Source of the DNA: a virus
Direction: 5' to 3' (one strand)
DNA: 30,506 nt
Virus record (IMG/VR): IMGVR_UViG_3300044606_000094
Location: 1 to 30,506 of that record
Part shown: positions 1,039 to 28,867 of the stretch, piece after piece
Layout of the letters: each line of letters opens with the position of its first letter
How positions within the stretch are numbered: the first letter of the stretch is position 1
The notes under the pieces: model-generated
The model's input: only the letters and a program-made list of their open reading frames with translations
What the model was told of the DNA's origin: nothing
Database searches by the model: none
Made by a program: the position numbers and the translations under genes

Positions 1039-3483
1039 TTATACCTCCACCAAATCTAAAGTAGTCATATAGTCATCAGGGGATAATGTAATACCCTCTA
1101 TTCTAAAATCTTTATCCCACATATTATATCTATTTTCTAAATCTTCATCATCATAATATTCAAGGTCAGGCTGACCATAAACTACATCAGTATCGCCCCA
1201 TTTCCATCTTCTTAAAACCAGTGGCTCATCAAAAAATGTTTTTACTTTATCACCCAATTCAAGATGAGGCAAAAACATTGATTCAACTTTACATCTTATT
1301 TTAGGTTCTTTCGTGTAATTCAAAATCGTAGGAGCAACAGCATAAGCCAGATTGACATTATCAGCAGGCAATAATGAGCTTGATGAAATTGAATATTGCC
1401 TATCTCCATATTTGTCAATTGAGTTAGGATGATCGTCCGATGATGCATCAGATACTTTTCTATATATTCCAAATTCAGCTACAACACGATTATATACTCT
1501 ATCTATTCCTAAATCTATACTTTTAACATCAACAATATTATTATCACTTCTCAATTCAATAACAGCAGGGACATTTGTAAAACGAGGTCTATAAATAAAA
1601 GTTTCATCAGCTTTAAAACCAAATTCATAAGCAGGCATCTCGGCTAATTTTTCTAATGCTTGTCTTGATGTCATACCAGTTAAATTAACTAAATCTATAA
1701 GAGTTGTAGAGGTGTAATATGTCAATTTAATTTCGTCAAACACAGGAGTTAAAGGATTTGACAATGATTCTAATGTAGCAGTTACTCTAAACTTCAAATA
1801 TCGTTTAACTGCTGAATTAATTAAGCCAGTTGCTCCAATAGCAACCCAACCAGCAGGATCATTGCCTGTAGAAAAATCTGAGCTATCAGAGCTATAAGTT
1901 TCAAATATTACATTAGCTCCATTTGCTGTATATATCGCATTAAAATCCCCATAGGCAGTTACATCAGAGCCACAATCTTTAACAGGGCTTTCCAAGACGC
2001 CTCTACCTACAGTAGTGCCATTTTCCCAGAAGTAAAAATCATCAAAATAAAATATACGAGTCTGATCTGACCAATAAGCAACATAAGGTATGAGATAAAA
2101 ACCATTAGTAGTATTATGTGTTGTATCAGTTGCAGTCCCTTTTAAAACTTCATTGATGTATAATTTAAAAACACCATTTTCATCCCTTGAAATTCTATAT
2201 ACAAGTTCTATAGAATGATAATATAAATAACTTGTATCAATTAATAAAGTATCTACTCCTGCTGTTCTTTTAAAAAGACGAACCACCACACCCATTGGAC
2301 TTGGATATATAATTATATAATATCCATCATTAGGTTCTTCATTAATACCTGTTTCATTCAATCCTATTATCCATATAGTTAAAGGCATAGCATTATTACT
2401 CCAAGCTTTAAAAATCCAATTACCAGTTGTTTTTTGTAAAGGTAAAAAAAGATTTGGATTATTATCTAAACCCAATGAATTAACTTTCAATATATTTTCA
2501 TTTACTTCCCAACCATCATATTTAACTGTCCATTCAGGATTTTCATCATAATTACCATCTCCAAAATCATCAATCAAACCAATCTTAAAACTACCAGGCG
2601 TTGTAATTGTGTCTATATTAGTTTTAGTGCAAGTATCCCAATCATCTTTGCTATTAAAATCCCAAGTATTTTCAATTGAACTGCTAAATATAGCTGGAGA
2701 TATATCATAATTAGTTATTCCATTCAATATCATTATTTGTTCTACAAGCCACTCTAAAGTCTTATCCTGATACCAATATCTGTAAGAGCAATATAATTTT
2801 TCACCTGCTGTTAATTCGCTTACAAGAGTAATTTTAAGAGGCAGACTTTTTTGATTCAAATCAGATATAGTATAATCTATCTGAGGCTTAATTTCAGTAG
2901 CAGTTTCTAATGTTGTCCCTCTTTTAATATTGATTATTATCCCTACTCCATTATTATCTGTTGTAAATTCTGCTCCTGAATCTTGACCTACCAATTCATC
3001 ATTTACAAGTGTTGATATAGTTTCAGCATTCTTGTTGCCAAATTTTGATATTCCACTTTGAATAACAATATTGCAAGTCTTATTAACTAAATCATAATTC
3101 AAGTCATCAGAGATATAACCAGTAAAACTTTTTAATAATTCAAAACTACCATCAGCAAGTTGTGCACCAAATTTGATAACAATCTTTGAATCAACAACCT
3201 GATAATTACCAGAGAAAAACCCTTTTTCATTTCCCTGCTTCCATTGATTTCTATCATTACGAAAAACAATAGAAGTATTATCAAGTGTCCAAACATTAAA
3301 ACCTTCAGCATCCATCTTCCATCTTATTTCAGACATTTCTTTTACTTCACTTGTTATATCAATAGCTGTATCATAAACGAACGATCCATTTATCCATAAT
3401 TTACGATATAATTCAACAACTTTTTTATAGACAGGATTTTTTCTTTCAAGTGATTTTTTTAATTCGTTAGAAATATCTTGCAT
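1039..3483 (-). CDS. Large distal tail protein (Tal-like tail-tip protein)
   Basis: 814-aa ORF immediately after the Dit-like gene and tape measure, which is the usual siphovirus order; no catalytic motif recognised. Confidence 0.45.
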   Translation of the reverse strand: MQDISNELKKSLERKNPVYKKVVELYRKLWINGSFVYDTAIDITSEVKEMSEIRWKMDAEGFNVWTLDNTSIVFRNDRNQWKQGNEKGFFSGNYQVVDSKIVIKFGAQLADGSFELLKSFTGYISDDLNYDLVNKTCNIVIQSGISKFGNKNAETISTLVNDELVGQDSGAEFTTDNNGVGIIINIKRGTTLETATEIKPQIDYTISDLNQKSLPLKITLVSELTAGEKLYCSYRYWYQDKTLEWLVEQIMILNGITNYDISPAIFSSSIENTWDFNSKDDWDTCTKTNIDTITTPGSFKIGLIDDFGDGNYDENPEWTVKYDGWEVNENILKVNSLGLDNNPNLFLPLQKTTGNWIFKAWSNNAMPLTIWIIGLNETGINEEPNDGYYIIIYPSPMGVVVRLFKRTAGVDTLLIDTSYLYYHSIELVYRISRDENGVFKLYINEVLKGTATDTTHNTTNGFYLIPYVAYWSDQTRIFYFDDFYFWENGTTVGRGVLESPVKDCGSDVTAYGDFNAIYTANGANVIFETYSSDSSDFSTGNDPAGWVAIGATGLINSAVKRYLKFRVTATLESLSNPLTPVFDEIKLTYYTSTTLIDLVNLTGMTSRQALEKLAEMPAYEFGFKADETFIYRPRFTNVPAVIELRSDNNIVDVKSIDLGIDRVYNRVVAEFGIYRKVSDASSDDHPNSIDKYGDRQYSISSSSLLPADNVNLAYAVAPTILNYTKEPKIRCKVESMFLPHLELGDKVKTFFDEPLVLRRWKWGDTDVVYGQPDLEYYDDEDLENRYNMWDKDFRIEGITLSPDDYMTTLDLVEV

Positions 3484-3485
3484 TA

Positions 3486-4247
3486 TTATTTTTCCTCTAA
3501 TGACAACGATAGATTAAATAATCTTTCTTTCCTATTAATATTAAAATTAGGAGCATTTACTATTTGAAACTCATAAATATCAGAAATATTAAAATCTTGA
3601 TAAAATATAACTATTATAAATTCATTCTGTTTCATATAAGGCAATAAAATATTTAGATTGTCCAATGATACATTTTCAATTGATAATTTACCTGATACTT
3701 TTGTCCATTCTTTCCAAGAGACTAATTTACCACCAGCCAATCTATAATCATTACCACGCATAGAATCATTTCTTGAAAAATCACTCAACCATTCAGGCTC
3801 TTCAAGAATTGATTTACAGATTTTTAATTCTCCGATTTGTTTTTCTTGATTAGCTATTTGCGTGGTTTTACAATTTAACCTAATTCTGCTGACAGGAATA
3901 GGAGGAGGTTGTGTAATTTCAATAATTGTGTATGCTTCGTTTTCAATTATCAATCCAGCCCCTGGGATATTAATCCAATCTGTGCCATTGTAATATTCAA
4001 AAGTAACAAATTTTAGATTATGATTTAAAATTATTATTCTATTAAAATCTCTGTTTATTTCCTCACCTTGCCAATTTTTGAAAGTGATATCTATATGCTC
4101 TATTATATTATCATTAGAACCTTCACTTACCCATTTAGTAGCCTGATTTTGGTCAAACAAATAATTTTTAGTAGCAGACCCAGATGTAGGTTCTATACTA
4201 CAATATTCATTTATATAATTTTCACTACATATTTTAATACCGTTCAT
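3486..4247 (-). CDS. Distal tail protein (Dit-like) or minor tail protein
   Basis: 253-aa ORF directly downstream of the tape-measure gene; assignment by position and size. Confidence 0.4.
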   Translation of the reverse strand: MNGIKICSENYINEYCSIEPTSGSATKNYLFDQNQATKWVSEGSNDNIIEHIDITFKNWQGEEINRDFNRIIILNHNLKFVTFEYYNGTDWINIPGAGLIIENEAYTIIEITQPPPIPVSRIRLNCKTTQIANQEKQIGELKICKSILEEPEWLSDFSRNDSMRGNDYRLAGGKLVSWKEWTKVSGKLSIENVSLDNLNILLPYMKQNEFIIVIFYQDFNISDIYEFQIVNAPNFNINRKERLFNLSLSLEEK

Positions 4248-6133
4248 ATAGTTGTATTACCTGCCTTTTTAAGTCCAACCTTATAATTTACCTTTGCTAA
4301 TTCAACAGCTGATAGAACGCCTGACCTTGTAGCCTTTGCAAGTTTATCAGCTATCACTGATATATCTGTTTCAGATGTCCCGCCTATTGTTATGTTTTGT
4401 GAAAGGGTTATGTTAGGAGCTCCTATTCCAGCACCTGCACCTGCAGGGATAAGTGAGGATGGCATAGGAACAGGATTATTCTTAATAGAATTAACCACAT
4501 CAGCAGGGATAACCTCCTCGCCTTTATGTAATAGATACGGTCCCGTTTCAGGTATATATCCACCTTCTTTACGAGTGCCTAACAAAAATTTCTCTGCCAT
4601 ACCACCAAACCCTAATCCAGTCAGAGCCTTAAATAATAACCATTTTGCTATCATCTGTGAAACCATAGAGATAAAAGAATTTAAAATGCTTTTAAAAATA
4701 CCACTTAATAATTTTTTAAAATTGTCAAACATATTTCCTGATGACTTTATAAATGTTTCTATTGCTGATGACATTCCAGATATTGTAGATGACCACATCG
4801 CATCCCACGCCTGTGCCCATCCCATACCTGATGATTTCATTCTATCAATAGATTGCAAGAATGACCCTGCCATAGTCGCATTATCACGAGCATATATTTC
4901 CTGAGCTCTAATCATAAGAGCTTCCTTTTGCTCTAATGTTTTCTCATCCCAAGAACCCTGCTCACCATATATAAATTGTAAATAACTTAATTCTGCCTCA
5001 CCTTTTGCCGATAGATACCATTCATCAACTTCTTTTAATTTTCTTTCTGCTTGTTTTTTTGCTTCTGCTAATTCCTCTTCATTTATTGTAGGTGCAGGTT
5101 TTGCTGCAGGTTTTTCAAGAGGTTTAGGTGCAGGTTTTGCTGCAGGTTTTGCAGCATTCTCTTTTGCTATTGCTTTTTCTAATTCTATTTTTGTATCAGT
5201 TAAATTTTTTAAAGTAGTAGAATAATCAAGCCACTGCTTATTTGATATAACATTTGATGTTTGTGCTTGTAAATCTATAATCTTTTGTAAATTTGCTCTA
5301 TATATTTTTATTTGCTCATTAGTAGCATCAAGTCTTATTTCATTCAAACTTTTACCAGCATTACTTGCTCTCTCTTCTGATTTTGTTATTTCTTCAAACC
5401 AGCCAGTTACAGATTCTAATTTTTCTAACCAAAAATCTATTACAGGTATTAATTCCTTTCCAATTCTTTCCTTTAAATCACTTATTCTATTTTCAAAAAC
5501 TTTTAATTTACCGCTTGTTGTTTCTGCTTCTGTTGTAGCGATATTAAATCCATCAGCCAAAAGTTTAGTAACAGCTGCAGCCTTCTCTGTTTCGTCTGTC
5601 ATAGAGCGGAGCTGAGGGATATATCGCTGAAGCATCGTATAATCACCTTGACCAGCAAGAGCGACCATTTTAATAGCACTATTCAAATCAACACCATATG
5701 CCTTTGAAAGTCCAATCGCTTGTTTTGTAGCTTCCCCTATCTTATCAGCAGATATGCCCATTGACAAACCTAACTGCATTACAGCAAGAGCATCCTCATC
5801 GCTTACAGTAGTTATCTTTTGGATTTCAGAAGCTAAATTTTGCAATTGATTAGAAAGCGAATCGCTATATATTCCTTGTGAACGAAGTTGCTGATTAAGA
5901 CGAGCAACAGCTTCCTCTGACTTTGCATATTCATTCCAGCAATCTTTTGCAAAGTCTATTGTTTTATATATTGCAGCACCGCCTGCGAATAAACCACCGA
6001 TTTTTGTGAATGTAGATTTTAAATTTGATGCTGAATCATCAGTTTGATTGATATGACTTTTTGCTTCTTCCAAACCTTTCGGGTCAAATAGAGTTCCAAG
6101 TCGTATGTAGAATTTAGCGAATTCTCCAGCCAT
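4244..6133 (-). CDS. Tail tape measure protein
   Basis: 629-aa, helix-rich, with a low-complexity AAKPAAKPAPKPLEKPAAKPAP stretch; lies between the chaperone pair and distal tail genes. Confidence 0.8.
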   Translation of the reverse strand: MAGEFAKFYIRLGTLFDPKGLEEAKSHINQTDDSASNLKSTFTKIGGLFAGGAAIYKTIDFAKDCWNEYAKSEEAVARLNQQLRSQGIYSDSLSNQLQNLASEIQKITTVSDEDALAVMQLGLSMGISADKIGEATKQAIGLSKAYGVDLNSAIKMVALAGQGDYTMLQRYIPQLRSMTDETEKAAAVTKLLADGFNIATTEAETTSGKLKVFENRISDLKERIGKELIPVIDFWLEKLESVTGWFEEITKSEERASNAGKSLNEIRLDATNEQIKIYRANLQKIIDLQAQTSNVISNKQWLDYSTTLKNLTDTKIELEKAIAKENAAKPAAKPAPKPLEKPAAKPAPTINEEELAEAKKQAERKLKEVDEWYLSAKGEAELSYLQFIYGEQGSWDEKTLEQKEALMIRAQEIYARDNATMAGSFLQSIDRMKSSGMGWAQAWDAMWSSTISGMSSAIETFIKSSGNMFDNFKKLLSGIFKSILNSFISMVSQMIAKWLLFKALTGLGFGGMAEKFLLGTRKEGGYIPETGPYLLHKGEEVIPADVVNSIKNNPVPMPSSLIPAGAGAGIGAPNITLSQNITIGGTSETDISVIADKLAKATRSGVLSAVELAKVNYKVGLKKAGNTTI

Positions 6134-6343
6134 TTATTTTTTCCTCTTTATTCCAATTGCCATAAGCTCGGCTGTCGTAGGAGTTGAGCCAGATTTATTG
6201 ATAATATTTTTATTATCTTTAACTCCAACTCCAACACCTATAATAGAACTTATAAAATCTGTCCAAAATTTATATTGACTTATATCAATATCAACAGCCT
6301 GCTCATAAGCAAGTGTAATCCATTCAGTAGAATGGTCAAGCAC
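6134..6343 (-). CDS. Tail assembly chaperone extension (T part of a likely G/GT -1 frameshift product)
   Basis: This frame is open upstream back to about 6470 and overlaps the 3' end of the G ORF in the -1 frame; conserved siphovirus arrangement upstream of tape measure. Confidence 0.45.
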   Translation of the reverse strand: MLDHSTEWITLAYEQAVDIDISQYKFWTDFISSIIGVGVGVKDNKNIINKSGSTPTTAELMAIGIKRKK

Positions 6344-6372
6344 TTCCTCAAAAGTATAGCCGAATGTGGATG

Positions 6373-6822
6373 CTATTTTTGAGACGACGGCAAAGAGAGC
6401 ATTCCTTTTATTTTCTCGGCTATCCCCTTTAGATTCTTTGTCGTCTGCTGAAAATTTGCGAATATTTTTTCAAAGTCATTTAATTCAGTAACAACTTTTA
6501 TAACTTCGCTAAAATCCTCCATTGAAATATTTGAAAAATCATCATCTGATTTTAATAATATTTTCAATAAGCCATCAGCATTTTCTGTTGCTATTCCTTC
6601 AAGCAAAGCAGGCAAATCATTTTTATCAATACTGTTATTAATTATATTTTGTCTTACAGATTCGTGTAAATTACCAATCAATCTTAAAAGTTTAATATTC
6701 TGTGCCAATGTCATTTTTGTTATCGTATATTTTTTATTATTGACTGTTATAATTTTTTCAACAGGAAGCAAAGTTTCTATTTCACTCATAAATATCTCCT
6801 TTTGTATTTTTAAAAAAAACAC
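6373..6822 (-). CDS. Tail assembly chaperone (G-like); true start probably ATG at 6789 (MSEIETLL) after RBS GGAGAT
   Basis: Position between major tail and tape measure genes; internal RBS plus ATG at 6789. Confidence 0.5.
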   Translation of the reverse strand: MFFLKIQKEIFMSEIETLLPVEKIITVNNKKYTITKMTLAQNIKLLRLIGNLHESVRQNIINNSIDKNDLPALLEGIATENADGLLKILLKSDDDFSNISMEDFSEVIKVVTELNDFEKIFANFQQTTKNLKGIAEKIKGMLSLPSSQK

Positions 6823-6866
6823 AATGAGGCAAAGTTTTACCTATGCCCCATTGTGTATAAGGATTA
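6821..6866 (-). terminator. Rho-independent terminator after the major tail protein gene
   Basis: 13-bp stem (ACACAATGAGGCA / TGCCCCATTGTGT, one mismatch) followed on the minus-strand transcript by a run of 8 U (plus-strand A8 at 6821-6828). Confidence 0.7.
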
Positions 6867-6871
6867 CTCTG

Positions 6872-7750
6872 TTATGTCGTTACATTAAACTGTTCAATTT
6901 TAGTAGCAGCTAATCTATTACCAGCAAGGTCTTTAAGACCTGTTGTAACTACTGCCTGAAATGTATTACTTGCTGTCCAATTATTTGTAGGAGTGAAGGT
7001 AACTTTTTTAGTCGTGGCATTATAAACTAATGTTCCAGCAACCAGAGCAGCAGATGCAGGTGTTGTTGTGTTTATGATAGAAAAAGTATCACCATATACT
7101 ATAGTAGATTGGTCTATCTGTCCAGCCTCTGTTATAGTCCATTCTACAACACCTTTTGTGTCTTTAGTAACAGTTCCACCATCAATAGGAGTAGAAAGAG
7201 CTACGCTTGGAGGTGTGGTGTCAACATCGGTATCAGTAAATGTTCCCATCTCTGCACCTGAAGCTTGAGCATTATCCCACAATACATCCATCTCCATCTC
7301 AACAATAGTTTTATCATCCTTCTTGTATGAGTGAGCACCACTACCTGAAATCACACATTTAGGAAAGTGATACATCCTTGTCCCACCAGCGGGTCCATCA
7401 ACATAAAAGAAAATTTCTCTGTAAAGCTCGCCATTAGAAGGTGCTCCTAATTTTAATACTCCATTTGACACGGCAGAGGTAGGCAATCCAAAAGCCAAAG
7501 CTATATTTGATAATGTAGCCTCAGCCAAATTAAATTTTAGTTTCCCAACTCGTCTAACTTCTTTTGCAGCAGTAGGTCCTGGGTCTTGGTCAGTGTCAAT
7601 ATGTTTTATTTCTCTTTCAAGAGAGAACTCAATGCCATCAGATGTCCTTCCAACATCTACAGCAGCATTAACCCCGCCTGCATAATCTCCTATCTTCACT
7701 TGAGACGCTGCACCGAGATTGAAACCAAATACTATATTTTGCGTTTGCAT
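6872..7750 (-). CDS. Major tail protein with C-terminal Ig-like domain
   Basis: 292-aa ORF in the expected position; Thr/Ser-rich beta-type C-terminus; strong terminator immediately downstream. Confidence 0.6.
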   Translation of the reverse strand: MQTQNIVFGFNLGAASQVKIGDYAGGVNAAVDVGRTSDGIEFSLEREIKHIDTDQDPGPTAAKEVRRVGKLKFNLAEATLSNIALAFGLPTSAVSNGVLKLGAPSNGELYREIFFYVDGPAGGTRMYHFPKCVISGSGAHSYKKDDKTIVEMEMDVLWDNAQASGAEMGTFTDTDVDTTPPSVALSTPIDGGTVTKDTKGVVEWTITEAGQIDQSTIVYGDTFSIINTTTPASAALVAGTLVYNATTKKVTFTPTNNWTASNTFQAVVTTGLKDLAGNRLAATKIEQFNVTT

Positions 7751-7752
7751 TT

Positions 7753-8154
7753 TTATCCTCCATTTTTCCTTTTATACTTTATATGAAATATACAACTATG
7801 TGAATACAATCTTGTATCATTCTCAAATGTATCCACTCCGCCAACCTTACGACTGTAATATATATAAAATTTATCTGATGTGATATTAATATTTTCCCAT
7901 ACATCTAACAACTCTGAAAGTCTATAAGCAATAGATACAGCATTATCATAAATTTCAGAATATGCTGTCAAGGTTATCATACTTTCTTCAAGCACAGAAT
8001 CATTAGAACCTTCTGAAACAAAGTATAATATATAAGGTGTTGTGTCTCCAGGGGGTGCTTGAATAGGGAATATTTTTTTATTACCAGCATTACCTTGCAA
8101 CAAAGTTTGAAGTTGTGAATCTGCTTCAAGCCATTTAATTAAATCTCGTATCAT
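7753..8154 (-). CDS. Tail terminator / neck protein (hypothetical)
   Basis: 133-aa ORF between the gp10-like gene and major tail gene; position only. Confidence 0.35.
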   Translation of the reverse strand: MIRDLIKWLEADSQLQTLLQGNAGNKKIFPIQAPPGDTTPYILYFVSEGSNDSVLEESMITLTAYSEIYDNAVSIAYRLSELLDVWENINITSDKFYIYYSRKVGGVDTFENDTRLYSHSCIFHIKYKRKNGG

Positions 8155-8620: not shown

Positions 8621-9163
8621 TTAAAACTCTATTCTTTTAAAAGGAGCAAGTCCATCTATAAAAGCCTGAGGATTATAAACAATATCAGAATGGTCAATCT
8701 TTGCATCTTTCATCCTTCCTTCAAGAAGCATTATAACCCATTCTATACATATTTCAGAGAGCCCTGCAGGGATTGTAGAATATCCAGCCTGATAAGTTAC
8801 TTTATACTCTCTATGTCTATCATCTACATAATCCCAGCCATTATCACTATACAAATATCCTTCATCATTATAAACTTTATAATAACTTGAATCAATTATT
8901 TCATCATTCAATTTTACAACAGGAGTGCCTATAACAGGATATTGTTTTAAAAAAAGATATTTGCCACGAGGCACATCATAAACTTCATCAGTATAAGTAG
9001 CTAACTTAAAATTACGATTACACAATGCTTCAATTCTACCGCTTATAATATTTATCAATGTCTGAATACGATCGTCATAAGTTGTGTCATCTTGATTTCG
9101 TCCCCAAACATATTTAACATCGGCTACTGTTGTTAAAGCATTATCCGAAGCGGTTACTGACAT
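8621..9163 (-). CDS. Head-tail connector / adaptor protein (gp6-like)
   Basis: N-terminus LTTVADVKYVWGRN...RIQTLINIISGRIEALCNR is typical of gp6-like connector proteins; RBS AGGAGA upstream. Confidence 0.5.
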   Translation of the reverse strand: MSVTASDNALTTVADVKYVWGRNQDDTTYDDRIQTLINIISGRIEALCNRNFKLATYTDEVYDVPRGKYLFLKQYPVIGTPVVKLNDEIIDSSYYKVYNDEGYLYSDNGWDYVDDRHREYKVTYQAGYSTIPAGLSEICIEWVIMLLEGRMKDAKIDHSDIVYNPQAFIDGLAPFKRIEF

Positions 9164-9246
9164 TATGTCTCCTATTATTCCGATCCTCGCCCTAATAAGT
9201 AAATATTAAAGCGAGGATGAGGGAATTGAATATGAATATTATTTAT

Positions 9247-9636
9247 TTATCTATAGTGAACATTAAACTGAACAACACTATCTGCATCTGATTTTCTAAA
9301 GCATACATCTGTCACAGATAGAGGAGTATTGTAGAGTGGAAAACTCAAGAATATACTTCTTGAACTTTCACCAGCTGGAATATATCCTCTCCATATCAAA
9401 CTAACTGTAGTCGTAGATGAGCAATTTTTATAAACGCTAACCGTCTGTGCAGTTGTCGTGCTAATATTGAATATAGATATTTGTTCAATAGCTATATTTC
9501 CAGATATATTAGCAGCCATTGTAGCTGCCTCATCAATCGGATAAGTAGAAGCTGCAACGGTATAATCAGTAGCAGAAGCGGATGCTAATGCACTGAAAAC
9601 TCCAAGACAAAATATAAGAGCTATAACCTTTTTCAT
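9247..9636 (-). CDS. Secreted protein with N-terminal signal peptide (possible moron or decoration protein)
   Basis: MKKVIALIFCLGVFSALASASA followed by a Thr/Ser-rich domain; a hairpin (about 9184-9218) follows the gene. Confidence 0.5.
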   Translation of the reverse strand: MKKVIALIFCLGVFSALASASATDYTVAASTYPIDEAATMAANISGNIAIEQISIFNISTTTAQTVSVYKNCSSTTTVSLIWRGYIPAGESSRSIFLSFPLYNTPLSVTDVCFRKSDADSVVQFNVHYR

Positions 9637-9828
9637 TTATTTACCTCCTAACTTTTTTTTTGAAACTTCAGGAGCTATTTTATTTGATTCTGATTTTACA
9701 TCAAGAATTTTTATAGCTCCTGATTTCTCTAAAACTTCTGCTGATTTTTTATCCATAGTTGTTTTAGAACCAGCGATATAACCAGCAAGTTTTATAACTT
9801 CAATCATGCATATTTCGTTTTCATTCAT
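9637..9828 (-). CDS. Hypothetical protein
   Basis: 63-aa ORF tightly packed between the capsid gene and the secreted-protein gene. Confidence 0.35.
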   Translation of the reverse strand: MNENEICMIEVIKLAGYIAGSKTTMDKKSAEVLEKSGAIKILDVKSESNKIAPEVSKKKLGGK

Positions 9829-9840
9829 TTTATTACCCTA

Positions 9841-11025
9841 TTATTTAACATCAAGGTAAGCAAATGCGGCAGGCATTGCTATTGTTATAGCTTCTGCTTG
9901 CACGAACCTAAGCCAAGTCTGGTCAGACATAAAGGCTGATACTTGACTTGTAGGGTCATAAGCATCCTGCGATACTTTAACCTGTAGCCCCTGTCTTGGA
10001 GAAATAAGTGCGTTCCTTCCAAAGTCTCCAAATAGGATAGGATATTTGCTATCTATAGCAGTTATCATATCAGAGATTTCATATCTATATCCATTTATAG
10101 TAGCGGGTGCTCCCTGAACAGGTGCGTTCCATAATGGCCTGCCTGTGTTATCTTTAAGCTTCATTATTACTTTAAGTGCATTCGTTGGAAGAACATATAT
10201 TGCATTCTGCCTATAGCCAGCAGCAATTGAAGTTTCAAGATTAACAAGGTCATCATATACCAGCGAAGCTCCAGCCATAGTATTAGCAACAACGCCTGTC
10301 TCATATCTTACACCCATAAAAGGATCTCCTGCTCCAGTATTGCCCATAAAGAGAACCCTGTCCTCTTCCTGTGCCATTGCCTCAGCGATTAGCTCAGCTA
10401 AAAATGTCTGTAAGTTTATAGCAGAATCTCTAAGCAACTCATCTGTGAGCATTAACACTGCAGCCATTACTTTCGCTTCCTGACTAACCTGTCCAAATGT
10501 TGGTTTAGTCACTGATTTAGATGAAGCTTCACTAACCCAAGATATGCTAACATTTGTAAGCTGTTTAGGGAATGTTCTTTTCCAAGTTGACATCGGGAAC
10601 AATCTTGCAATCCTTCTGCCTATACTTTCATTCTGCATTAATTTAAATACTTCGTTATTGAACTCAGTAGGAACAAGATAACCACCATTGGCAGGTGTTC
10701 CTTCACTCATCAATGTCTGATCCTTTTTCTGAACAGCTAAAATAAATTTAGCCATATCTCCGAAGTTCTTTCCATATTCAGAAGTCCAAGGTTCAGCTTT
10801 TGTATAGGCATACGGTTTATTTTTAAAGTTCTCAAACCTCTCCATAATGCCTTCTATGCTGTCAACTGGCAATGAAAAATTACTCTTCTGTGGAGTAAGT
10901 TTTTCAGCGAGTGCATTAGTTATTTTTTCAACTTCTGCACGAGTTATGAAATCTTGCTGTGATTCCATTTTCTTCCTCAACTCTGCAGATAAAGACTGCA
11001 GTTCCGCTATTAATGTCTCTGTCAT
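9841..11025 (-). CDS. Major capsid protein, HK97-like
   Basis: 394-aa; coiled-coil N-terminal delta-like region then GGYLVPTEF...RIARLFPM core; follows the prohead protease; RBS AGGAGG. Confidence 0.75.
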   Translation of the reverse strand: MTETLIAELQSLSAELRKKMESQQDFITRAEVEKITNALAEKLTPQKSNFSLPVDSIEGIMERFENFKNKPYAYTKAEPWTSEYGKNFGDMAKFILAVQKKDQTLMSEGTPANGGYLVPTEFNNEVFKLMQNESIGRRIARLFPMSTWKRTFPKQLTNVSISWVSEASSKSVTKPTFGQVSQEAKVMAAVLMLTDELLRDSAINLQTFLAELIAEAMAQEEDRVLFMGNTGAGDPFMGVRYETGVVANTMAGASLVYDDLVNLETSIAAGYRQNAIYVLPTNALKVIMKLKDNTGRPLWNAPVQGAPATINGYRYEISDMITAIDSKYPILFGDFGRNALISPRQGLQVKVSQDAYDPTSQVSAFMSDQTWLRFVQAEAITIAMPAAFAYLDVK

Positions 11026-11037
11026 TTTATATTCCTC

Positions 11038-11979
11038 CTATATCTTTTCTATTAACTCTTTTAAAGATTTTACATTCTCTTTAAATTTATCAATTTCTAT
11101 TGTTTCAGAAATATCATTCAAAACAGATTTAACAGATTCTAAATCATTTTCATCTTTTATATTTTTATTATTATCATTATTAAATTCAACATCAGCAAAG
11201 CCAAGTGCGTCAGGGTCAGCACCAACACCAACAGGTGAGATATGATATATCTTTGCATATGTCAGATGGTCAGGATGCTCTTTATCCTCATAAAACCACT
11301 GTCCAGCAATAGAAAATGCTTTTGCGTGTCCTTCTAAATAAACAGTGCGAGCATGTTTTATTTCAGGCAAATCTGAATTTGAGAAGACTGCTTTAACTCT
11401 AAGTCCTATCTCATCCTCTTCTATTTCTTTGAAACTTCCAGCTATATGCGATACTTCATTTCTATGATCCAGAAGCATAACAGGGTTCTTTTTAAACTCA
11501 GACAATTCATAAACATAATTGCGAAGGCTCGGAAACACAGTAGGAATATCGCCATATCTATCTGCTTTATTTTTTGTATTAGCATAACCTCGTATAACAA
11601 CCAAACCATTCTCTTCTGCTATTTTTAAATCAGATATATCAAAAGTTTTTACAAAAGGATTTTCTTTACTGCCTAAAATTTTTATTCCTTCTTTCATAAT
11701 AGCTCCATTAAATAATTTAGAATTTTTTAAAACCCATTCCCTTGCTTTTTCTATTGTCCATTTATCTTTATCAAATAAATATTTTTGAACCACCATTGAA
11801 CCTTCCTGACCTTCAGGTGGATTAATTAATTTACCGACAACTGCCTTTATTCCTTCCTGAGTAGATATATCAATTGTTCTAAATGAACTTTGTATAAATA
11901 ATTTTGGGTCTCTAATACGATAGTGTATATAGTCCCCTATGATTTCTGGCTCTGGCTTGTTATCTTTAGAATTATTCAT
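11038..11979 (-). CDS. Prohead protease (HK97-family-like), possibly with scaffold function
   Basis: VVIRGYANTKNKADRYGDI...LLDHRNEVSHIAG matches the prohead protease pattern; lies between portal and capsid genes. Confidence 0.6.
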   Translation of the reverse strand: MNNSKDNKPEPEIIGDYIHYRIRDPKLFIQSSFRTIDISTQEGIKAVVGKLINPPEGQEGSMVVQKYLFDKDKWTIEKAREWVLKNSKLFNGAIMKEGIKILGSKENPFVKTFDISDLKIAEENGLVVIRGYANTKNKADRYGDIPTVFPSLRNYVYELSEFKKNPVMLLDHRNEVSHIAGSFKEIEEDEIGLRVKAVFSNSDLPEIKHARTVYLEGHAKAFSIAGQWFYEDKEHPDHLTYAKIYHISPVGVGADPDALGFADVEFNNDNNKNIKDENDLESVKSVLNDISETIEIDKFKENVKSLKELIEKI

Positions 11980-11999
11980 AAATTTTTAACAAAGACAAT

Positions 12000-12028
12000 A
12001 TTATATAAAATTATTTAATTGTTGTCAA
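12000..12028 (-). promoter_or_regulatory. Sigma70-type promoter P1 (TTGACA, 17 bp, TATAAA) upstream of the prohead protease gene
   Basis: Minus-strand -35 TTGACA at 12023-12028 and -10 TATAAA at 12000-12005; short leader with no SD before ATG 11979. Confidence 0.55.
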
Positions 12029-14157
12029 GTATTTTTTTTCACAACAGGGAATATAGTGCATCTACAATTAATAGAATCACCGGGCAAACTCATATCCCCA
12101 GGGGCTTGTCCTGTCGCTCCAGTTGATAGAACAAAATCCTCATCAATAGGGATTGCTCCATGTATCCCATATCTATGTCCTGCCTCTGCATGTGCCTCAC
12201 GCGTAACCTCGTCATAAGCAGGCAACCATCCTTTGAGCTCAACCATTTCATTTTCTCTGTATGCTTCAATTGAGCCAGCATTCAAAGATGATATAACTTC
12301 AGTCTGTGCTATACGAAGCGTTCTATAATCCCGCTCCATATCAAAGACTTCAGCAACTCGTTTAGATATAACCTCTATACCTGAACCGAGAGCTATTTCT
12401 TCATCAATAACTTTCTGTAATTTTTTTCTTGTAGTGTTATTTATATTTTGAGCCCATTGAAAACATTTAAGTTTTATCCAGTCCTCTATCCTTGACTTTG
12501 ATTTTTCTTGCATAACAGGAGCATCTTTTTTAGTCCATTCTTTAAGCAATAAATTCTCTGAATCTCTGCCTTCATAAATTGATTTGCGTATATGAGGTGT
12601 CATAACTTTTTCAAGTTCTTCATCCATCTCTCTGTCTGATATACCAATATCCATTAGATTAGGTATTTGTCCTGTATATTTAGAAAGTGCTTTTAATATT
12701 TTATCTCTTTGATTATCAAAATACTTTCTAACATCTTTTTGCATCGGCTTACTTAAATTATTTGCTAATATAATAAAGCGATGATGTTTTGATTTGAGCA
12801 TAGCCCTTGATGGAGTGATATTTGCTTTATATCCTTCATCAAATTCTTTCATCATCTTTTCATAATTAAAGTTAACAGAATTAGAATTATTTCCTTCAGG
12901 CATTGAGCCAGAAGGATAAACAGACACAGGAATATAAGACACATCAGTAATGCCTTTTACTTTTGAGAAAGGCAAGTCATAGGCATCTATAAGCGTGTCC
13001 ATAGGTATGCCCATTTGCCAATATCTATTTATATAGTTAGATCGTTTTTCCTCATCAGCCCTTAAAGCCTTTATCTCTGATTCAACTATATCAAAATAAA
13101 TTTTGCCTGTTTTATCAAACAGAGGAACATAAAACTCATTTAATATCTGACATATCTTTTCAGCTTTTGGCAATATCGTAGATCGCCAATATATCTTTTC
13201 TTGCTCCTCTGAATTTGCATAATTTGCGTATTCAAATATCCCGACCATAGCAGGAGGAACGCCAAACACTGCACATATATCTTCCCTGCTCATTTTAGTT
13301 TGTAAAACGAAATCCATATCTTTTTGTGAAACGCCAAGCATTTCAACTTTTGCTCCTTTTTCAATGAATACAACGCCATGAGAATTTTTATTTCCTTTAT
13401 ATTGCTGATTCCAATTTTCACGCATACGATTGCGTTGCTGTTGTGAGAGAGGATTAGGTGCAACAATAGCAATATCAGGACGAGCAGAATTTTTAAGAAA
13501 ATTAAGATTCCATTTGCTACCTGCATTATGTGTTTCTACTCCAATGCGTGCTGCAGCAAGAGGTGCAAGTCCATAGTGATAATCAAGAGGATTAAAGTTT
13601 TTAAAATGTATTATTTCCTCTGGCTTAAATATTATAGATTTTCCATTAACCAAATACTCATAACCTTTTATAAATTCGTTTGGATTATCAGATTTCAAAA
13701 TCTTTACATATGAAGGAATCAAAGGCCAGATCATAGTTGGAATACCTTTTGAATTATTAACTTCTAATTTCCAGTAAGCATTCCCAGTAAGCTCAAGACC
13801 GCCCTGTGTCCATTCAAGTAAATCAGACATTGTCATCTGATTATTAACTTTGTAAAGCAAATCAAGAGCAGGATGCTCATATATAGTTTCATCTTTTTCA
13901 TTGTAGAGAGCGATAGGAACAGAACTTATATCTTGTATAATTCTATGAACACAATTAAAAACCCATATGCTATCAGCATAAGCCTTTAAATAAGAATCAT
14001 AAGAATTTTGAGAGGGAGAAGGCAATTCATCATCAAGCTCAAATAATTCTGAATAGGTAGGACTTAAAAAAGATTTTTCTTTTGATGTGAATATATTTTT
14101 AATATTTTTAGCACTTCTGATTATTTTTTCAAACATTTGAATATTATAGTAAAACAA
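12025..14157 (-). CDS. Portal protein fused to a C-terminal SPP1 gp7-like (Mu F-like) head morphogenesis domain; likely start ATG at 14136
   Basis: 710-aa ORF after TerL. C-terminus KGWLPAYDEVTREAHAEAGHRYG...INCRCT matches the gp7 / Mu F family signature. The listed start is TTG; the first ATG is at 14136. Confidence 0.65.
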   Translation of the reverse strand: MFYYNIQMFEKIIRSAKNIKNIFTSKEKSFLSPTYSELFELDDELPSPSQNSYDSYLKAYADSIWVFNCVHRIIQDISSVPIALYNEKDETIYEHPALDLLYKVNNQMTMSDLLEWTQGGLELTGNAYWKLEVNNSKGIPTMIWPLIPSYVKILKSDNPNEFIKGYEYLVNGKSIIFKPEEIIHFKNFNPLDYHYGLAPLAAARIGVETHNAGSKWNLNFLKNSARPDIAIVAPNPLSQQQRNRMRENWNQQYKGNKNSHGVVFIEKGAKVEMLGVSQKDMDFVLQTKMSREDICAVFGVPPAMVGIFEYANYANSEEQEKIYWRSTILPKAEKICQILNEFYVPLFDKTGKIYFDIVESEIKALRADEEKRSNYINRYWQMGIPMDTLIDAYDLPFSKVKGITDVSYIPVSVYPSGSMPEGNNSNSVNFNYEKMMKEFDEGYKANITPSRAMLKSKHHRFIILANNLSKPMQKDVRKYFDNQRDKILKALSKYTGQIPNLMDIGISDREMDEELEKVMTPHIRKSIYEGRDSENLLLKEWTKKDAPVMQEKSKSRIEDWIKLKCFQWAQNINNTTRKKLQKVIDEEIALGSGIEVISKRVAEVFDMERDYRTLRIAQTEVISSLNAGSIEAYRENEMVELKGWLPAYDEVTREAHAEAGHRYGIHGAIPIDEDFVLSTGATGQAPGDMSLPGDSINCRCTIFPVVKKNT

Positions 14158-16031: not shown

Positions 16032-16298
16032 TTAATTTATTAGTGTGAAAACTATTTTTTCAAAAATACCAGTATAATTTGGATAGAGATTATCATAAAC
16101 CTCCTTCATTTCAGGAGGGATTAAAAATTGTGTCTTATCAATTATTTTTACTTTGGCGAAAGGTGGACGTGGTCCTACTGTTAAAGTAATAATTTCTCCT
16201 ATATTAGGATTTCTGTTACTTTTTTTACGAATAGTATAATTTTTTTCACCTGACAATATTGGTTTAACATATTTCTCTTTGAACCATAAAGATTTCAT
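16032..16298 (-). CDS. ASCH (PUA-like) domain protein
   Basis: 88-aa; KYVKPILSGEKNYTIRK resembles the ASCH core; strong RBS AGGAGG; start overlaps the stop of the upstream gene (ATGA). Confidence 0.55.
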   Translation of the reverse strand: MKSLWFKEKYVKPILSGEKNYTIRKKSNRNPNIGEIITLTVGPRPPFAKVKIIDKTQFLIPPEMKEVYDNLYPNYTGIFEKIVFTLIN

Positions 16299-17377
16299 TT
16301 TCTACCTCCTATATATCTAAATGAAGCCGTAAGTCTCCTAAAAGATGAAATTTTTTTATGCATAATATTATTAGGAGTACAATGTCCTAATCTCCTTAAT
16401 TGCCATTTAGGACTTCTTGAACGATGAAAAATCATAGCAGGATGAGATGTTGTAGATATAAAAATAAATCCTTTTTTAGTTAAATAATTACCTAACCATT
16501 CTGATAATATATTGCCTATTCCAAGCCCCTGATAATCTGGTAAAACTACTGTTCTATGTTCTCTTTTATACTTCATACTTGAAGAATGAGGAAAATGAAT
16601 ATAACTGGTAAAAGCAACTGGTTTATTTTCCCAATAAGCAACAAAACATTGTGCTTGATCCGCTATATCAGCACTTAAATAATGATTTCCTCTAAAAATT
16701 TTCCACATACTTCTATCTGTTTTATAGATTTTGAGTTTAATTTTGGGGCGTCCTTGAAGAGACCTCCAATTAAATTCATTTTTTGTAACATCATAAATCC
16801 AATCAGGTTGTAACCATTCAATAATATCATAATGACAAGATAATAAAACTATTTTTTTATCTGGAAAATTTTTACGAAAAACTTTTTGAAGACAATGAGA
16901 TACTGTTTTTGCAACATCTCTATCTATAACAGAAGTAAATTCATCTATTACTATATTCTTATATTCGCTTAATATAACTCGCACCAAATCTACCCTAAAT
17001 TTTTGTCCATTTGAAAGTGTATGCCAAGATTTAAGCCACGCTACTGGAGAACTTAAACCAATATTATTTAATACTTCTATAATTTTTTTTATTGGAATAT
17101 CTTTATTAAAATCATTTAAAAAAGAATCATCTTTTTTCCATTTAAATCCTGTTATCATTTTAAAATCTTTAAAAATCTCAGAAGCAATAACTGTTTTACC
17201 TGAACCTGAATTACCAACAATTAATCCTATATTCCATTTTTTATTTTCTAATGGCAATGAAACATCCCATTCGTGTTTTACTTCAGTCATATTAGGAATA
17301 TCAAATATTCCAATTACACTATCAACTCTATAACTCTTTTTCACTGGAGTGGTTCTTACAATGTGATAATTCGGCAT
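16295..17377 (-). CDS. ABC-type ATPase domain fused to a GNAT-like acyltransferase domain
   Basis: Walker A GNSGSGKT, ABC signature-like LSNGQKFRVDLVRVIL, Walker B IVIDEF, H-loop-like LLSCHYD; C-terminal VVLPDYQGLGIGNILSEWL resembles GNAT motif A. Confidence 0.55.
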   Translation of the reverse strand: MPNYHIVRTTPVKKSYRVDSVIGIFDIPNMTEVKHEWDVSLPLENKKWNIGLIVGNSGSGKTVIASEIFKDFKMITGFKWKKDDSFLNDFNKDIPIKKIIEVLNNIGLSSPVAWLKSWHTLSNGQKFRVDLVRVILSEYKNIVIDEFTSVIDRDVAKTVSHCLQKVFRKNFPDKKIVLLSCHYDIIEWLQPDWIYDVTKNEFNWRSLQGRPKIKLKIYKTDRSMWKIFRGNHYLSADIADQAQCFVAYWENKPVAFTSYIHFPHSSSMKYKREHRTVVLPDYQGLGIGNILSEWLGNYLTKKGFIFISTTSHPAMIFHRSRSPKWQLRRLGHCTPNNIMHKKISSFRRLTASFRYIGGRK

Positions 17378-24444: not shown

Positions 24445-24762
24445 TTATTTTATTTTTTCTAATAATCCCAGTTCATAAGGGATTAACTTTATCTCATCAG
24501 TAGACAAGACTTTACCTTCAGGAAGTCTTGTAAGCACCCTGAAAACAAGAGCTTTATCCTCTGTTTCCATCTTTACCTGTAATCTATTCGTTGGGATTTT
24601 AATTTCCAATAAACAGCTCATAAATTCAGCAGTAGCCTGATGACCAACTGCTGAAGTAAACTCCCCCTTAAGGAGCTCTTTAGCCCCTTCAAGAGAAATT
24701 TTATTGAACTTATATTCACCCCAGTCTGTTAAAACTGGAGTATTAAGAACATACAACTTCAT
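24445..24762 (-). CDS. Hypothetical protein
   Basis: 105-aa ORF, start overlapping the HTH gene stop. Confidence 0.4.
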   Translation of the reverse strand: MKLYVLNTPVLTDWGEYKFNKISLEGAKELLKGEFTSAVGHQATAEFMSCLLEIKIPTNRLQVKMETEDKALVFRVLTRLPEGKVLSTDEIKLIPYELGLLEKIK

Positions 24763-25272: not shown

Positions 25273-25686
25273 TTATATCAATCCTTTGTTTTTAAAACTA
25301 TAATATTTAAAACACTTACCAATAATCAAATGGTCAATAATATTAATATCTATTATTTTACCTGATTTTACTAACTTTTGTGTTATAATTAAATCATCTT
25401 CCGATGGTTCTACATCGCCTGATGGATGATTGTGGCATATAAATATACCATATATACCCTTCATAATAGCAAACCTAAAAACTTCACGAGGGGATACTAT
25501 TGAACTGTTAATATTTCCTAATGAAACTAATTCAATATATTGTATCATTAGTTTTACGTTTACTCCTGCCACCCAAAAGTGTTCTTTATTTTTATCAATT
25601 ATGTTATCTTTATTTAAAATAGCATAAAATACTGATGCCAACTCATCCATCCCAATAATCTTTGTTTTTTTAGATTTTATAAGCAT
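25273..25686 (-). CDS. RadC-like JAB/MPN domain protein
   Basis: HNHPSGDVEPSEDD matches the JAB metalloprotease motif (HxHP...S..D) typical of RadC-like proteins. Confidence 0.75.
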   Translation of the reverse strand: MLIKSKKTKIIGMDELASVFYAILNKDNIIDKNKEHFWVAGVNVKLMIQYIELVSLGNINSSIVSPREVFRFAIMKGIYGIFICHNHPSGDVEPSEDDLIITQKLVKSGKIIDINIIDHLIIGKCFKYYSFKNKGLI

Positions 25687-26987: not shown

Positions 26988-27347
26988 CTAACTAAAATAT
27001 TTTTCTATTTCAGAAATGGCTTCCTGTGCTCCATGACAGACTACTGCTTTATATCCGTTTTCATTTAATTTTTTCAGGAAGGCTTTTTGATTTTCAGATA
27101 CAACTCCACCATGAGTTTTTTTCATCTCAATAAAAAGACCGTGATATTTTTTTCTTGCTTCAAATATCATCAGATCAGGTGTGCCTGCAGTGTAGCCCAT
27201 TCTTTTCACACGAATAGCCTTCATCATAGATAATCTTTCGCCTGATGCTCCTGCAGTAGTGAACAAAATATCAGGTTTAAATTTGCGTAAATAATTGACT
27301 ACGATTATTTGATTTTGTTCTTCCTCGTATCTCATATAAATCACCAC
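26988..27347 (-). CDS. VRR-NUC domain nuclease
   Basis: GTPDLMIFEARKKYHGLFIEMKK ... ENQKAFLKKL matches the VRR-NUC PD-(D/E)XK core. Confidence 0.75.
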   Translation of the reverse strand: MVIYMRYEEEQNQIIVVNYLRKFKPDILFTTAGASGERLSMMKAIRVKRMGYTAGTPDLMIFEARKKYHGLFIEMKKTHGGVVSENQKAFLKKLNENGYKAVVCHGAQEAISEIEKYFS

Positions 27348-27622
27348 CCCAACCTATGTTTAATATAAATTATAACAGCCTGCAGTGTTAAAGTAATCCC
27401 TGATGATACTATCATAGATGTTTTAGTATTTTCTTTTTTAATTGCTCTAATCTCTTCTAATATTCCTACCTTACCATTTCCATAGACACATTTTTCTAAT
27501 GTTTTTATCCTATTCAAAGCACCAATGTTTTCATCTTTTAATAATATCACAATCTCATCCATCTTTTTACCTATATCCTCAACCTTTTTCTCTAATAGTT
27601 CAGTATTCATATTAATTTTCAT
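27341..27622 (-). CDS. Small protein with N-terminal coiled coil and C-terminal transmembrane segment (XhlA-like?)
   Basis: Helical N-terminal part and hydrophobic tail MIVSSGITLTLQAVIIYI. Confidence 0.3.
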   Translation of the reverse strand: MKINMNTELLEKKVEDIGKKMDEIVILLKDENIGALNRIKTLEKCVYGNGKVGILEEIRAIKKENTKTSMIVSSGITLTLQAVIIYIKHRLGW

Positions 27623-27794
27623 TAAACATCTTATTTAATATATCTATTACATCATCCAAATCCTCATATCTTCCACTTTCAGAATTAAAGTTATCATAAA
27701 GAATATATAAGTCATAATATTCTTTATCATCATAACTATTTTTTGTTTTGTAAAATCTCAACTCACGAATATTTTTTAATTTATCTTTACTCAT
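27612..27794 (-). CDS. Hypothetical acidic small protein
   Basis: 60-aa ORF with RBS AAGGAGA. Confidence 0.4.
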   Translation of the reverse strand: MSKDKLKNIRELRFYKTKNSYDDKEYYDLYILYDNFNSESGRYEDLDDVIDILNKMFNEN

Positions 27795-27979
27795 CTAACA
27801 TCTCCTTAATAAATCTGCCTTTATGCTTTATCCTATCCTTTTTACTCATAATAATATTTGTGGCAGGATTCACCTTCCAATATCTTCTAACTTTTATATT
27901 TGTCTTTATCTTTTTATTATTCATAAATTTATAGGCACAAGTATAAATTATATACTTATGCCTTTTCTTCTATATCTAT

Positions 27980-28008
27980 ATTATAGCAGATTACTATTTA
28001 TTTTCAAT
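27980..28008 (-). promoter_or_regulatory. Sigma70-type promoter P7 (TTGAAA, 16 bp, TATAAT)
   Basis: -35 at 28002-28007, -10 at 27980-27985; near-duplicate of the P6 block. Confidence 0.5.
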
Positions 28009-28248
28009 GTTAGTTTTATTTAGTTTATCATTTATAATCTGCTCAACCTTCGCAAAGAACTCATCATCTTTTGTTGACTTTGTGGCTTTAACAATAGCCC
28101 TTGCCAGCGTATATACACCTGCAAGTATGCCTGTTATGATAGCAACAGTCTGCGGTGGTATCATACCACTCAATGCCTGCCATAATACAATACCTATGCT
28201 TAACGCAGTTAACCAGAACTCACTCGTTTTTACTCCTGATTTTTCCAT
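27994..28248 (-). CDS. Holin (two transmembrane segments); start revised to ATG at 28248 (MEKSGVKTSEFW...)
   Basis: Hydrophobic helices FWLTALSIGIVLWQALSG and TVAIITGILAGVYTLARAIV followed by a charged C-terminus; RBS AAGGAGG 8 nt before the internal ATG. Confidence 0.55.
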   Translation of the reverse strand: MEKSGVKTSEFWLTALSIGIVLWQALSGMIPPQTVAIITGILAGVYTLARAIVKATKSTKDDEFFAKVEQIINDKLNKTNIENK

Positions 28249-28318
28249 ATTATTAACCTCCTTCTTAACTTTTAGAAATGTTCTAAATAAATTATATATT
28301 TGTTTTATACTCATAATA

Positions 28319-28867
28319 TCATCTCCTTTTAAATAAATCAATTTCAAATCGTGGGGCATTTCCTTTTAGCCACCCAACCTGAAACCATCTTTTAAATAGA
28401 TAAAATTCTAAGTAGTATCTATTGCCATTTGTGTATTCTCTCAATTCCCATCTATATCCTTTCTTATCTTTACATAATGTAGCAAAATCTTGCTTACCGC
28501 CCGATTTTATTATTTTTATAAATTTACCTAAATTATAAGCAGAATAATTATTCCAATTGACCATCGCATTGCGTATAGCGTTGAAATAATAACTTAATAT
28601 AAACTCATTATGCCATTTCCAAATCCAAGAGGGATAATAACCTTCCTTGTTAGCATACTCAACCCCATATGTCATAAGCTCGCTATCATTCAAAAAGAAA
28701 TATAATGGCTTAAATTTTGGCTCATATAAATATCCTTCCCATAATATCTTATTGTAGTTCCTTAATTTATGCCTAAATAAATAAGCAATAGGATATATGA
28801 GAGGAGCTAATATGTCCTTTATGAGAGAAAACAATATATACCCTATAAATATTAGTTTTTCTTTCAC
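28319..28867 (-). CDS. Membrane-anchored Trp/Tyr-rich protein of unknown function
   Basis: N-terminal transmembrane helix (LIFIGYILFSLIKDILAPLIYPIAYLF) then aromatic-rich domain; GTG start after RBS AGGAGAAG. Confidence 0.45.
   Translation of the reverse strand: MKEKLIFIGYILFSLIKDILAPLIYPIAYLFRHKLRNYNKILWEGYLYEPKFKPLYFFLNDSELMTYGVEYANKEGYYPSWIWKWHNEFILSYYFNAIRNAMVNWNNYSAYNLGKFIKIIKSGGKQDFATLCKDKKGYRWELREYTNGNRYYLEFYLFKRWFQVGWLKGNAPRFEIDLFKRR

Follow-up and report, generated by a model that had tools for sequence, protein, structure and literature searches.

Why would a phage keep, just after its major capsid gene, a gene whose product seems made to leave the cytoplasm? The question is raised by the gene at 9247-9636 on the minus strand of a viral DNA of 30,506 nucleotides (nt; IMG/VR record IMGVR_UViG_3300044606_000094, positions 1 to 30,506), which we call the window and always mean at its full length. 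A sequence-only reading of this DNA had described the gene as encoding a secreted protein embedded in the head and neck module, possibly a moron. The answer that we favour, with a probability of about one half, is that it encodes an abundant exported accessory protein—a cargo of the phage—that acts on the cell envelope. The gene and its two parts are the following:

9247-9636, minus strand: gene of the putative exported jelly-roll protein precursor, 129 amino acids (aa), ATG start, stop codon at 9247-9249 (from the list of open reading frames and the sequence)
9571-9636, minus strand: codons of the predicted signal peptide, approximately residues 1-22 (from the sequence, the family-wide n/h/c pattern and the -3/-1 rule)
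9250-9570, minus strand: mature domain, about 107 aa, predicted to be a jelly-roll beta-sandwich of 7-8 strands

The open reading frame (ORF) and its Sec-type leader, both pointed out beforehand, are real: the leader pattern is present in all full-length relatives. In the window protein, which opens with MKKVIALIFCLGVFSALASASA, the leader is made of an n-region MKK, an h-region VIALIFCLGVFSAL and a c-region ASASA offering the sites ALA, ASA and ASA, with cleavage of the precursor predicted after residue 18, 20 or 22. This is the tripartite organization of the proteins handled by Sec and signal peptidase I, as judged by a heuristic scan, not by SignalP. The same character is found throughout the family. 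The n-region is net positive (about +2) and acid-free in the 62 aligned members, with the single exception of one member that has one acidic residue, and an 11-residue hydrophobic core (mean Kyte-Doolittle value 3.0) is present in every one of them. All 87 full-length members have a small-residue -3/-1 site after the core: position -1 is occupied by A in 76, G in 6 and S in 5, position -3 by V in 40, A in 31, L in 7, S in 4, I in 3 and G in 2. The hydrophobic segment is missing in two members out of 88 only, and both appear truncated at their 5' end. In the family alignment the sequence of the N-terminal 20-30 residues is not conserved while their character is uniform; a structural helix would show positional sequence conservation, so that the leader is better understood as one of the cleaved Sec type. 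Export and cleavage of the precursor would follow from these features. By direct reading, the window leader contains neither a lipobox, L-[AS]-[GA]-C, nor a twin-arginine motif; its sole cysteine, C10, stands in a context (LIFC) that is no lipobox, and the family does not conserve it.

That no other protein of the structural block carries a signal peptide was upheld by a hydrophobicity and charge scan of all the minus-strand ORFs: no other real gene of the block has a signal-peptide-like N-terminus, the other ORFs flagged there are short and nested within larger genes, and a single further real gene was flagged, 28319-28867, which is not part of the block. Short leaders are more typical of diderm hosts. 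Those of the family (heuristic median 21 aa, the heuristic sometimes picking an early site) give a weak hint at such a host.

An exhaustive HMMER search of 1.84 billion cluster representatives found 81 homologues of the window protein at E <= 1e-3, nearly all of 125-147 aa and nine of 171-203 aa; a word-indexed protein search gave a single match with the sequence alone (95% identical) and 15 with a profile. Two long repeat proteins of which only short segments match, P0015 (1521 aa) and P0073 (1403 aa), were excluded. The family, which counts at least 80 sequence clusters, is new, without entry in Pfam, PHROGs or the PDB. Neither the window protein nor the 62 aligned members match Pfam or PHROGs above noise, to which we ascribe sporadic sub-threshold matches such as PapG_N (E 0.065) and phrog_17588 (E 0.006). 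A profile search of the PDB returned no meaningful match (rhinovirus VP4, E 0.36), and none of the 50,697 GenBank phage records encodes a relative.

The mature domain is marked by the motifs YTV..STYP(V/I)(T/D)EA, QTVxxY, STTT, (C/x)(F/I/V)RKS and a C-terminal Y(R/K). Given the family alignment as input, AlphaFold2 predicts an N-terminal helix, corresponding to the leader, followed by a beta-sandwich of 7-8 strands (predicted local distance difference test score, pLDDT, 89.4; predicted template modelling score 0.77); the single-sequence model (pLDDT 40) was unusable, and the alignment-based one was used. The nearest solved folds include CBM32, TNF-like domains, PirA, Ena and the exported PBSX protein XepA, that is, to judge by the model, secreted or surface jelly-rolls and carbohydrate binders among others. 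Foldseek found no match in the PDB at E <= 0.001, and in BFVD uncharacterised phage proteins only (E about 1e-4). The mature protein would then be a generic single jelly-roll, without identifiable specific homologue. The Ig-like nature suggested earlier has to be abandoned: the predicted fold is a jelly-roll instead, and the 62 members scanned gave no Ig match in Pfam; the Ig-like domain of this phage, a Big_5, sits on the major tail protein. Two other ideas were discarded. A conserved disulfide C72-C112 was rejected, many members having only one or neither of these cysteines, as was a soluble copy of a receptor-binding domain of the phage, the hidden Markov model (HMM) of the family matching no other ORF of the window. 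With the C1q-like ORF at 29773-30372 (minus strand) this HMM gives E 0.53; that ORF encodes a protein of 199 aa, probably a tail fibre or receptor-binding tip, with a weak C1q-like match (E 4e-4).

The neighbours of the gene, all on the same strand, form a standard siphovirus late operon. Around the gene its elements are:

11038-11979, minus strand: prohead protease gene, S78-type
9841-11025, minus strand: gene of the HK97-type major capsid protein, upstream and in one operon with the exported-protein gene (PF05065, E 7e-50; phrog_10, E 2.5e-57)
9637-9828, minus strand: upstream ORF of 63 aa, basic in its C-terminal tail, which separates the capsid gene from the exported-protein gene
9644-9649, minus strand: Shine-Dalgarno sequence AGGAGG, 7 nt upstream of the ATG and within the end of the 63-aa ORF
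9183-9218, minus strand: stable hairpin with a 15-bp stem and a 6-nt loop, in the 83-nt spacer before the adaptor gene (outer helix 9171-9235)
8621-9163, minus strand: head-tail adaptor gene, downstream of the hairpin (phrog_442, E 4e-21)

On the capsid side the late operon comprises the small and large terminase subunits, a portal with a Mu F-like domain and the prohead protease. Beyond the adaptor, whose orthologue in the relative L001 matches PF24163 (HCP), come an HK97 gp10-like protein, the tail terminator, the major tail protein with its Big_5 domain, a chaperone and the tape measure. The portal (12025-14157, minus strand) has the Mu F-like head-morphogenesis domain, PF04233, fused at its C-terminus, a fusion common to all related contigs.

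The gene had been placed between the capsid and connector genes. This holds, but the 63-aa ORF, left unmentioned, separates it from the capsid gene. The TAA stop of this ORF (9637-9639) abuts directly the ATG of the exported-protein gene (9634-9636), with a spacer of 0 nt, which implies that the translation of the two is coupled. In relatives the small ORF and the exported-protein gene overlap by 4 nt in L004, L007 and L018, and are fused in frame in L021 and L022, without internal start codon at the junction; the fusion protein P0014 was found on 10 contigs. The fused proteins retain internally the basic stretch, the hydrophobic core and the AxA site, so that signal peptidase could still split the two parts. 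Small ORFs also follow the capsid gene in relatives without the exported-protein gene (L009, L010 and L052). Some relatives of the 63-aa ORF match phrog_2616; in the same scan the closest relatives of the window ORF gave no PHROG match. Since the upstream stop abuts the ATG, and the two frames overlap or are fused in relatives, there is no room for an own promoter; promoter-like matches around the gene are no commoner than in shuffled sequence.

The hairpin announced after the gene is real as well: it folds at -26.6 kcal/mol (z = -4.8), and none of 200 shuffles folds as well. In the window it has no U tract, and a simple terminator scan does not call it. A strong hairpin of unrelated sequence stands at the same place in L001, L004, L006, L012, L014, L016, L018, L021, L022, L070 and L071; several hairpins of relatives carry U runs and resemble intrinsic terminators, and that of L007 is weaker. 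L009 and L010, which also lack the exported-protein gene, have no hairpin in the spacer. The window hairpin is thus terminator-like or attenuator-like, and the gene lies at the 3' end of a transcription segment that includes the capsid gene, just before a conserved attenuator or terminator. From this we infer a high late co-expression with the capsid protein.

Is this arrangement peculiar to the window? The order capsid gene, small ORF, exported-protein gene, adaptor gene is shared by all closer relatives of the window phage, listed here by the identity of their capsid protein to that of the window:

L001-L003 and L011: 97%, gene present
L004/L005: 78%, gene present
L006: 64%, gene present
L007 and L012: 62%, gene present
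L016/L017: 49%, gene present
L022/L023: 48%, gene present
L014/L015: 43%, gene present
L018-L020: 28%, gene present

The gene also follows the capsid gene in other head modules: in L013, whose capsid protein is only 20-26% identical and whose adaptor is different; in L021, with a Phage_connect_1 adaptor and a PF05521 head-closure protein; in L069, with a capsid gene of PF09950 and an E217_gp27-like neck protein; and likewise in L070 and L071, which belong to other module types. Altogether, adjacency to the major capsid gene was found in the window and in all of the approximately 14 contexts examined. Of the relatives with a module of the window type, none whose capsid protein is at least about 28% identical lacks the gene. 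On the other hand L009 (36% capsid identity), L010 (30%) and L052, a prophage in a metagenome-assembled genome (MAG) of Nomurabacteria, have the small ORF followed directly by the adaptor, and in the Bdellovibrio phage phi1422, nearest to L069 among the cultured phages, no gene of this kind follows the capsid gene. The gene is accessory, because it is absent at the same junction in these four genomes; it is also old and strongly position-specific. A position conserved in all relatives, along with detection as a stoichiometric virion component, had been put forward as the mark of a structural protein: the slot is indeed fixed in the closer relatives, but the gene is missing in the four genomes just named. 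The synteny comparison, which had been proposed as a check for an insertion, speaks against a recent one: the slot is unchanged in every closer relative and recurs in other types of head module.

The composition and the evolution of the gene go in the same direction. Its GC content (0.33-0.345 along the gene) is that of its flanks (0.31-0.39) and of the genome (0.319), and the gene is ancient, not a recent insertion. The ratio of nonsynonymous to synonymous substitution rates relative to L001 is 0.29, which indicates purifying selection; the capsid gene has 0.07 and the adaptor 0.16. Within the close clade the exported protein diverges faster than the capsid protein (46-53% against 62-78% identity), at about the pace of the neck proteins. 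When 13 lineages are compared, mature-domain identity correlates weakly with capsid-protein identity (Spearman 0.38), and L013 is an outlier, its exported protein being 43-47% identical to that of several lineages versus 20-26% for the capsid protein. The weak correlation and this outlier mean that the protein is seemingly not tied to a matched capsid protein; they suggest occasional transfer of the gene between head modules. The contigs with the family span 32-61% GC, and several host groups are therefore likely. The relatives stem from the JGI samples 3300009658, 3300009704 and 3300009664.

In some relatives the slot holds other genes. In L070, five further genes with a signal peptide or a lipobox (3930-8060) stand between the family gene, with its strong terminator hairpin, and the adaptor: a weak paralogue of 111 aa (E 2e-4), a fibrous-repeat protein of 377 aa, a lipoprotein of 182 aa, a second protein of 377 aa and one of 76 aa. 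In L014 the family gene is separated from the adaptor by three extra genes (10543-12831), which encode 83 aa, 572 aa with a signal peptide and 105 aa. In L013 the gene at 2831-3400, upstream of the family gene, encodes a signal-peptide protein of 189 aa whose GGTITVESGGTI repeats are beta-helix-like. With such contents the slot after the capsid gene resembles an island of exported cargo, set where late expression should be highest.

The mechanism that we propose would then be as follows. The protein would be synthesized late from the message that also encodes the major capsid protein, its translation coupled to the small upstream ORF, and the hairpin, a canonical intrinsic terminator in relatives, would separate its gene from those of the neck and tail; this place before the hairpin puts the gene in what should be a high-expression slot of the late operon. 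The precursor would be exported by the Sec machinery of the host and cut by signal peptidase I, and a mature jelly-roll protein of about 11 kDa would be released outside the cytoplasm; having left it, the protein would not be built into the head there. Outside, it might behave as a lectin-like binder that coats a component of the envelope or surface of the infected, lysing cell, which would limit superinfection or the loss of progeny on debris. Our best guess for its activity is the masking of a receptor or glycan, a guess drawn from the analogous Llp and Cor and from the CBM-like fold. Llp (phage T5) and Cor (phi80/N15) are small exported envelope proteins, linked to structural genes, that block the receptor of their own phage. 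They differ from the window protein in being lipoproteins linked to the gene of the receptor-binding protein, whereas the latter has no lipobox, is linked to the capsid gene and has another fold.

The leader and the position next to the capsid gene pull in opposite directions, and we gave more weight to the leader: because every full-length member of the family has one and its evolution is that of a leader, because the protein is not tied to a matched capsid protein, as L013 indicates, and because in L070, L014 and L013 the slot holds additional genes for signal-peptide proteins or lipoproteins. Several observations weigh against an exported masking protein. An invariant place after the capsid gene, in modules that differ in capsid family, would be expected of a decoration protein. 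The motifs are kept across contigs of 32-61% GC, which fits a conserved target better than a variable receptor. The paired cysteines C72 and C112 are not conserved in the family, so that the disulfide signature of exported proteins is missing.

What the genome tells about the lifestyle of the phage bears on the alternatives. The first 36 nt of the window are identical to nt 30471-30506: the assembly is therefore circular and represents a complete phage genome of 30,470 bp. All the genes identified are on one strand, and upstream of 761-1036 a gene apparently runs over the junction of the circle. The ORFs scanned in the window include no integrase or repressor, and neither a tRNA nor a tRNA attachment signature was found; the replication and recombination genes are a DnaC-like and an O-like gene, RecT and an exonuclease. 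The phage has no DNA or protein match to cultured phages, its capsid protein being less than 30% identical to that of any of them, and no close relative of this protein occurs in the GTDB-representative bacterial genomes. The portal profile detected 45 loci in bacterial genomes, of which none (0/45) has the exported-protein family; these matches lie in Elusimicrobia, as truncated portal-plus-protease remnants, or belong to distant prophages of Chloroflexota and of the Nomurabacteria MAG. In about 28 Elusimicrobia genomes (L024-L051), two isolates among them, the identity (about 38%) is confined to the N-terminal half of the portal. In the two loci inspected, L029 (Parelusimicrobium proximum Dip518, 10013-11742) and L040, a truncated portal of about 397 aa and a prohead-protease-like gene of about 180-200 aa are followed by host genes; the pair may be a conserved phage remnant or may have been domesticated.

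Some other genes of the window deserve mention, all on the minus strand:

16295-17377, minus strand: protein of 360 aa in which a P-loop/ABC-like ATPase region is joined to a GNAT acetyltransferase domain at the C-terminus (phrog_11143, E 2e-97); the terminase genes lie on one side of it and a ParB-like gene on the other
24445-24762, minus strand: STIV B116-like protein of the early region (PF08960, E 1e-28)
25273-25686, minus strand: RadC-like JAB domain protein of the early region (E 6e-33)
27341-28359, minus strand: candidate lysis region, comprising a holin-like protein of 121 aa with two transmembrane segments (27994-28359) and a protein of 93 aa (27341-27622) that combines a coiled coil with a transmembrane segment at its C-terminus

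The ORFs at 28319-29340, which adjoin the candidate lysis genes, showed no recognisable endolysin domain.

Could the protein be part of the virion after all? As a decoration or cement protein its jelly-roll would bind the outside of the HK97-type shell, the leader being unused, or the periplasmic protein binding virions at lysis. The invariant place right after the capsid gene in several types of head module, the co-transcription with this gene before a terminator-like hairpin, where abundant proteins are encoded, and the accessory distribution, typical of decoration proteins, all agree with it. A cytoplasmic head protein, however, is not expected to have a canonical cleavable Sec leader, and here all 87 full-length members keep one although its sequence drifts freely. 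Our full-text literature search found no decoration protein with a signal peptide, L013 has a close copy of the gene beside a very different capsid protein, and the neighbours in the same slot of L070, L014 and L013 are also secreted proteins or lipoproteins. To our knowledge the jelly-roll cement proteins—that of Bordetella phage BPP-1, gp16 of Helicobacter phage KHP40, the gp30 turret of HFTV1—have no signal peptide and are assembled in the cytoplasm, whereas a Sec leader defines the window family. We hold a decoration protein to be the main rival reading, but unlikely. A variant with a still smaller chance, in our opinion, is that the exported protein joins or acts on the virion only outside the cytoplasm, either as a capsid decoration matured in the periplasm and added at lysis, or as a self-assembling extracellular jelly-roll subunit. 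In the latter case it could form an Ena-like or nucleoplasmin-like oligomer, built together with the secreted fibrous proteins found in the slot of L070 and L013. A role after export, in the virion or in an extracellular structure, would explain that a Sec-exported protein is locked to the capsid gene across families of head modules. As far as we know the Ena (DUF3992) subunits of endospore appendages have no Sec leader and polymerise via an N-terminal connector that contains cysteine; the window protein differs from them by the lack of such a connector, and has no sequence relationship with them.

The last two explanations concern the end of infection and the prophage state. An exported oligomeric jelly-roll that accumulates outside the membrane late in infection, and helps to breach the envelope or to release the particles, would fit the timing implied by the operon position; the gene however adjoins the capsid gene, away from the candidate lysis region (27994-28359 and its neighbours), and we regard such an egress accessory as improbable. 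The model for it is XepA of PBSX, a late, exported, non-virion jelly-roll protein (PMC6834076). The window protein shows no sequence homology or specific structural homology to XepA or YomS (from PBSX and SPbeta of Bacillus subtilis), and does not share their location in a lysis cassette; by analogy XepA nevertheless offers a precedent for this kind of phage product. The moron proposed by the sequence-only reading would be an autonomously transcribed insert, expressed from the prophage for lysogenic conversion or superinfection exclusion. Morons such as HK97 gp15 and lambda lom and bor are accessory inserts between structural genes, often with a membrane or secreted product and often followed by a terminator; they have their own promoter, often a deviating composition, and are expressed in the prophage. 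One part of this portrait is recognized here: presence or absence at the same junction among related genomes, a secreted product as predicted, a downstream terminator in the form of the hairpin (without U tract in the window), and a slot that is an insertion hot spot in relatives and gathers secreted genes. The other part is not: there is no space for a promoter, and promoter-like matches stay at the level of shuffles; the composition is native, not foreign; the gene, far from being recently inserted, is conserved and co-diverges across a deep clade; and the family is absent from the 45 portal-related bacterial loci. Lysogenic conversion in particular is unlikely for a circular 30.5-kb genome in which no integrase, repressor or tRNA attachment signature was found. 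In contrast with the morons of HK97 and the lambdoid phages, the window gene is coupled to the late operon, keeps a fixed slot, belongs to a deep family and is accompanied by no lysogeny gene that we could find. A classical moron seems to us very improbable.

The family belongs to the accessory exported proteins of phages, a known kind; its locking to the capsid gene is what is unusual. A paper on Porphyromonas gingivalis phages notes prophage genes with signal peptides, without explaining them. An operon of structural genes is commonly taken as an inventory of virion parts, and here a family that is almost certainly exported is kept after the capsid gene in several lineages of head modules. 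If this family does act on the envelope, it would represent a widespread and so far unrecognised late function of environmental siphophages—exclusion, prevention of readsorption or egress—and would caution against calling every small jelly-roll gene that follows a capsid gene a decoration protein. If it proved to sit on capsids, it would be, within the literature search made, the first decoration protein routed via the Sec pathway. As an apparent hot spot of secreted cargo, the slot itself would be useful for mining surface-active proteins encoded by phages.
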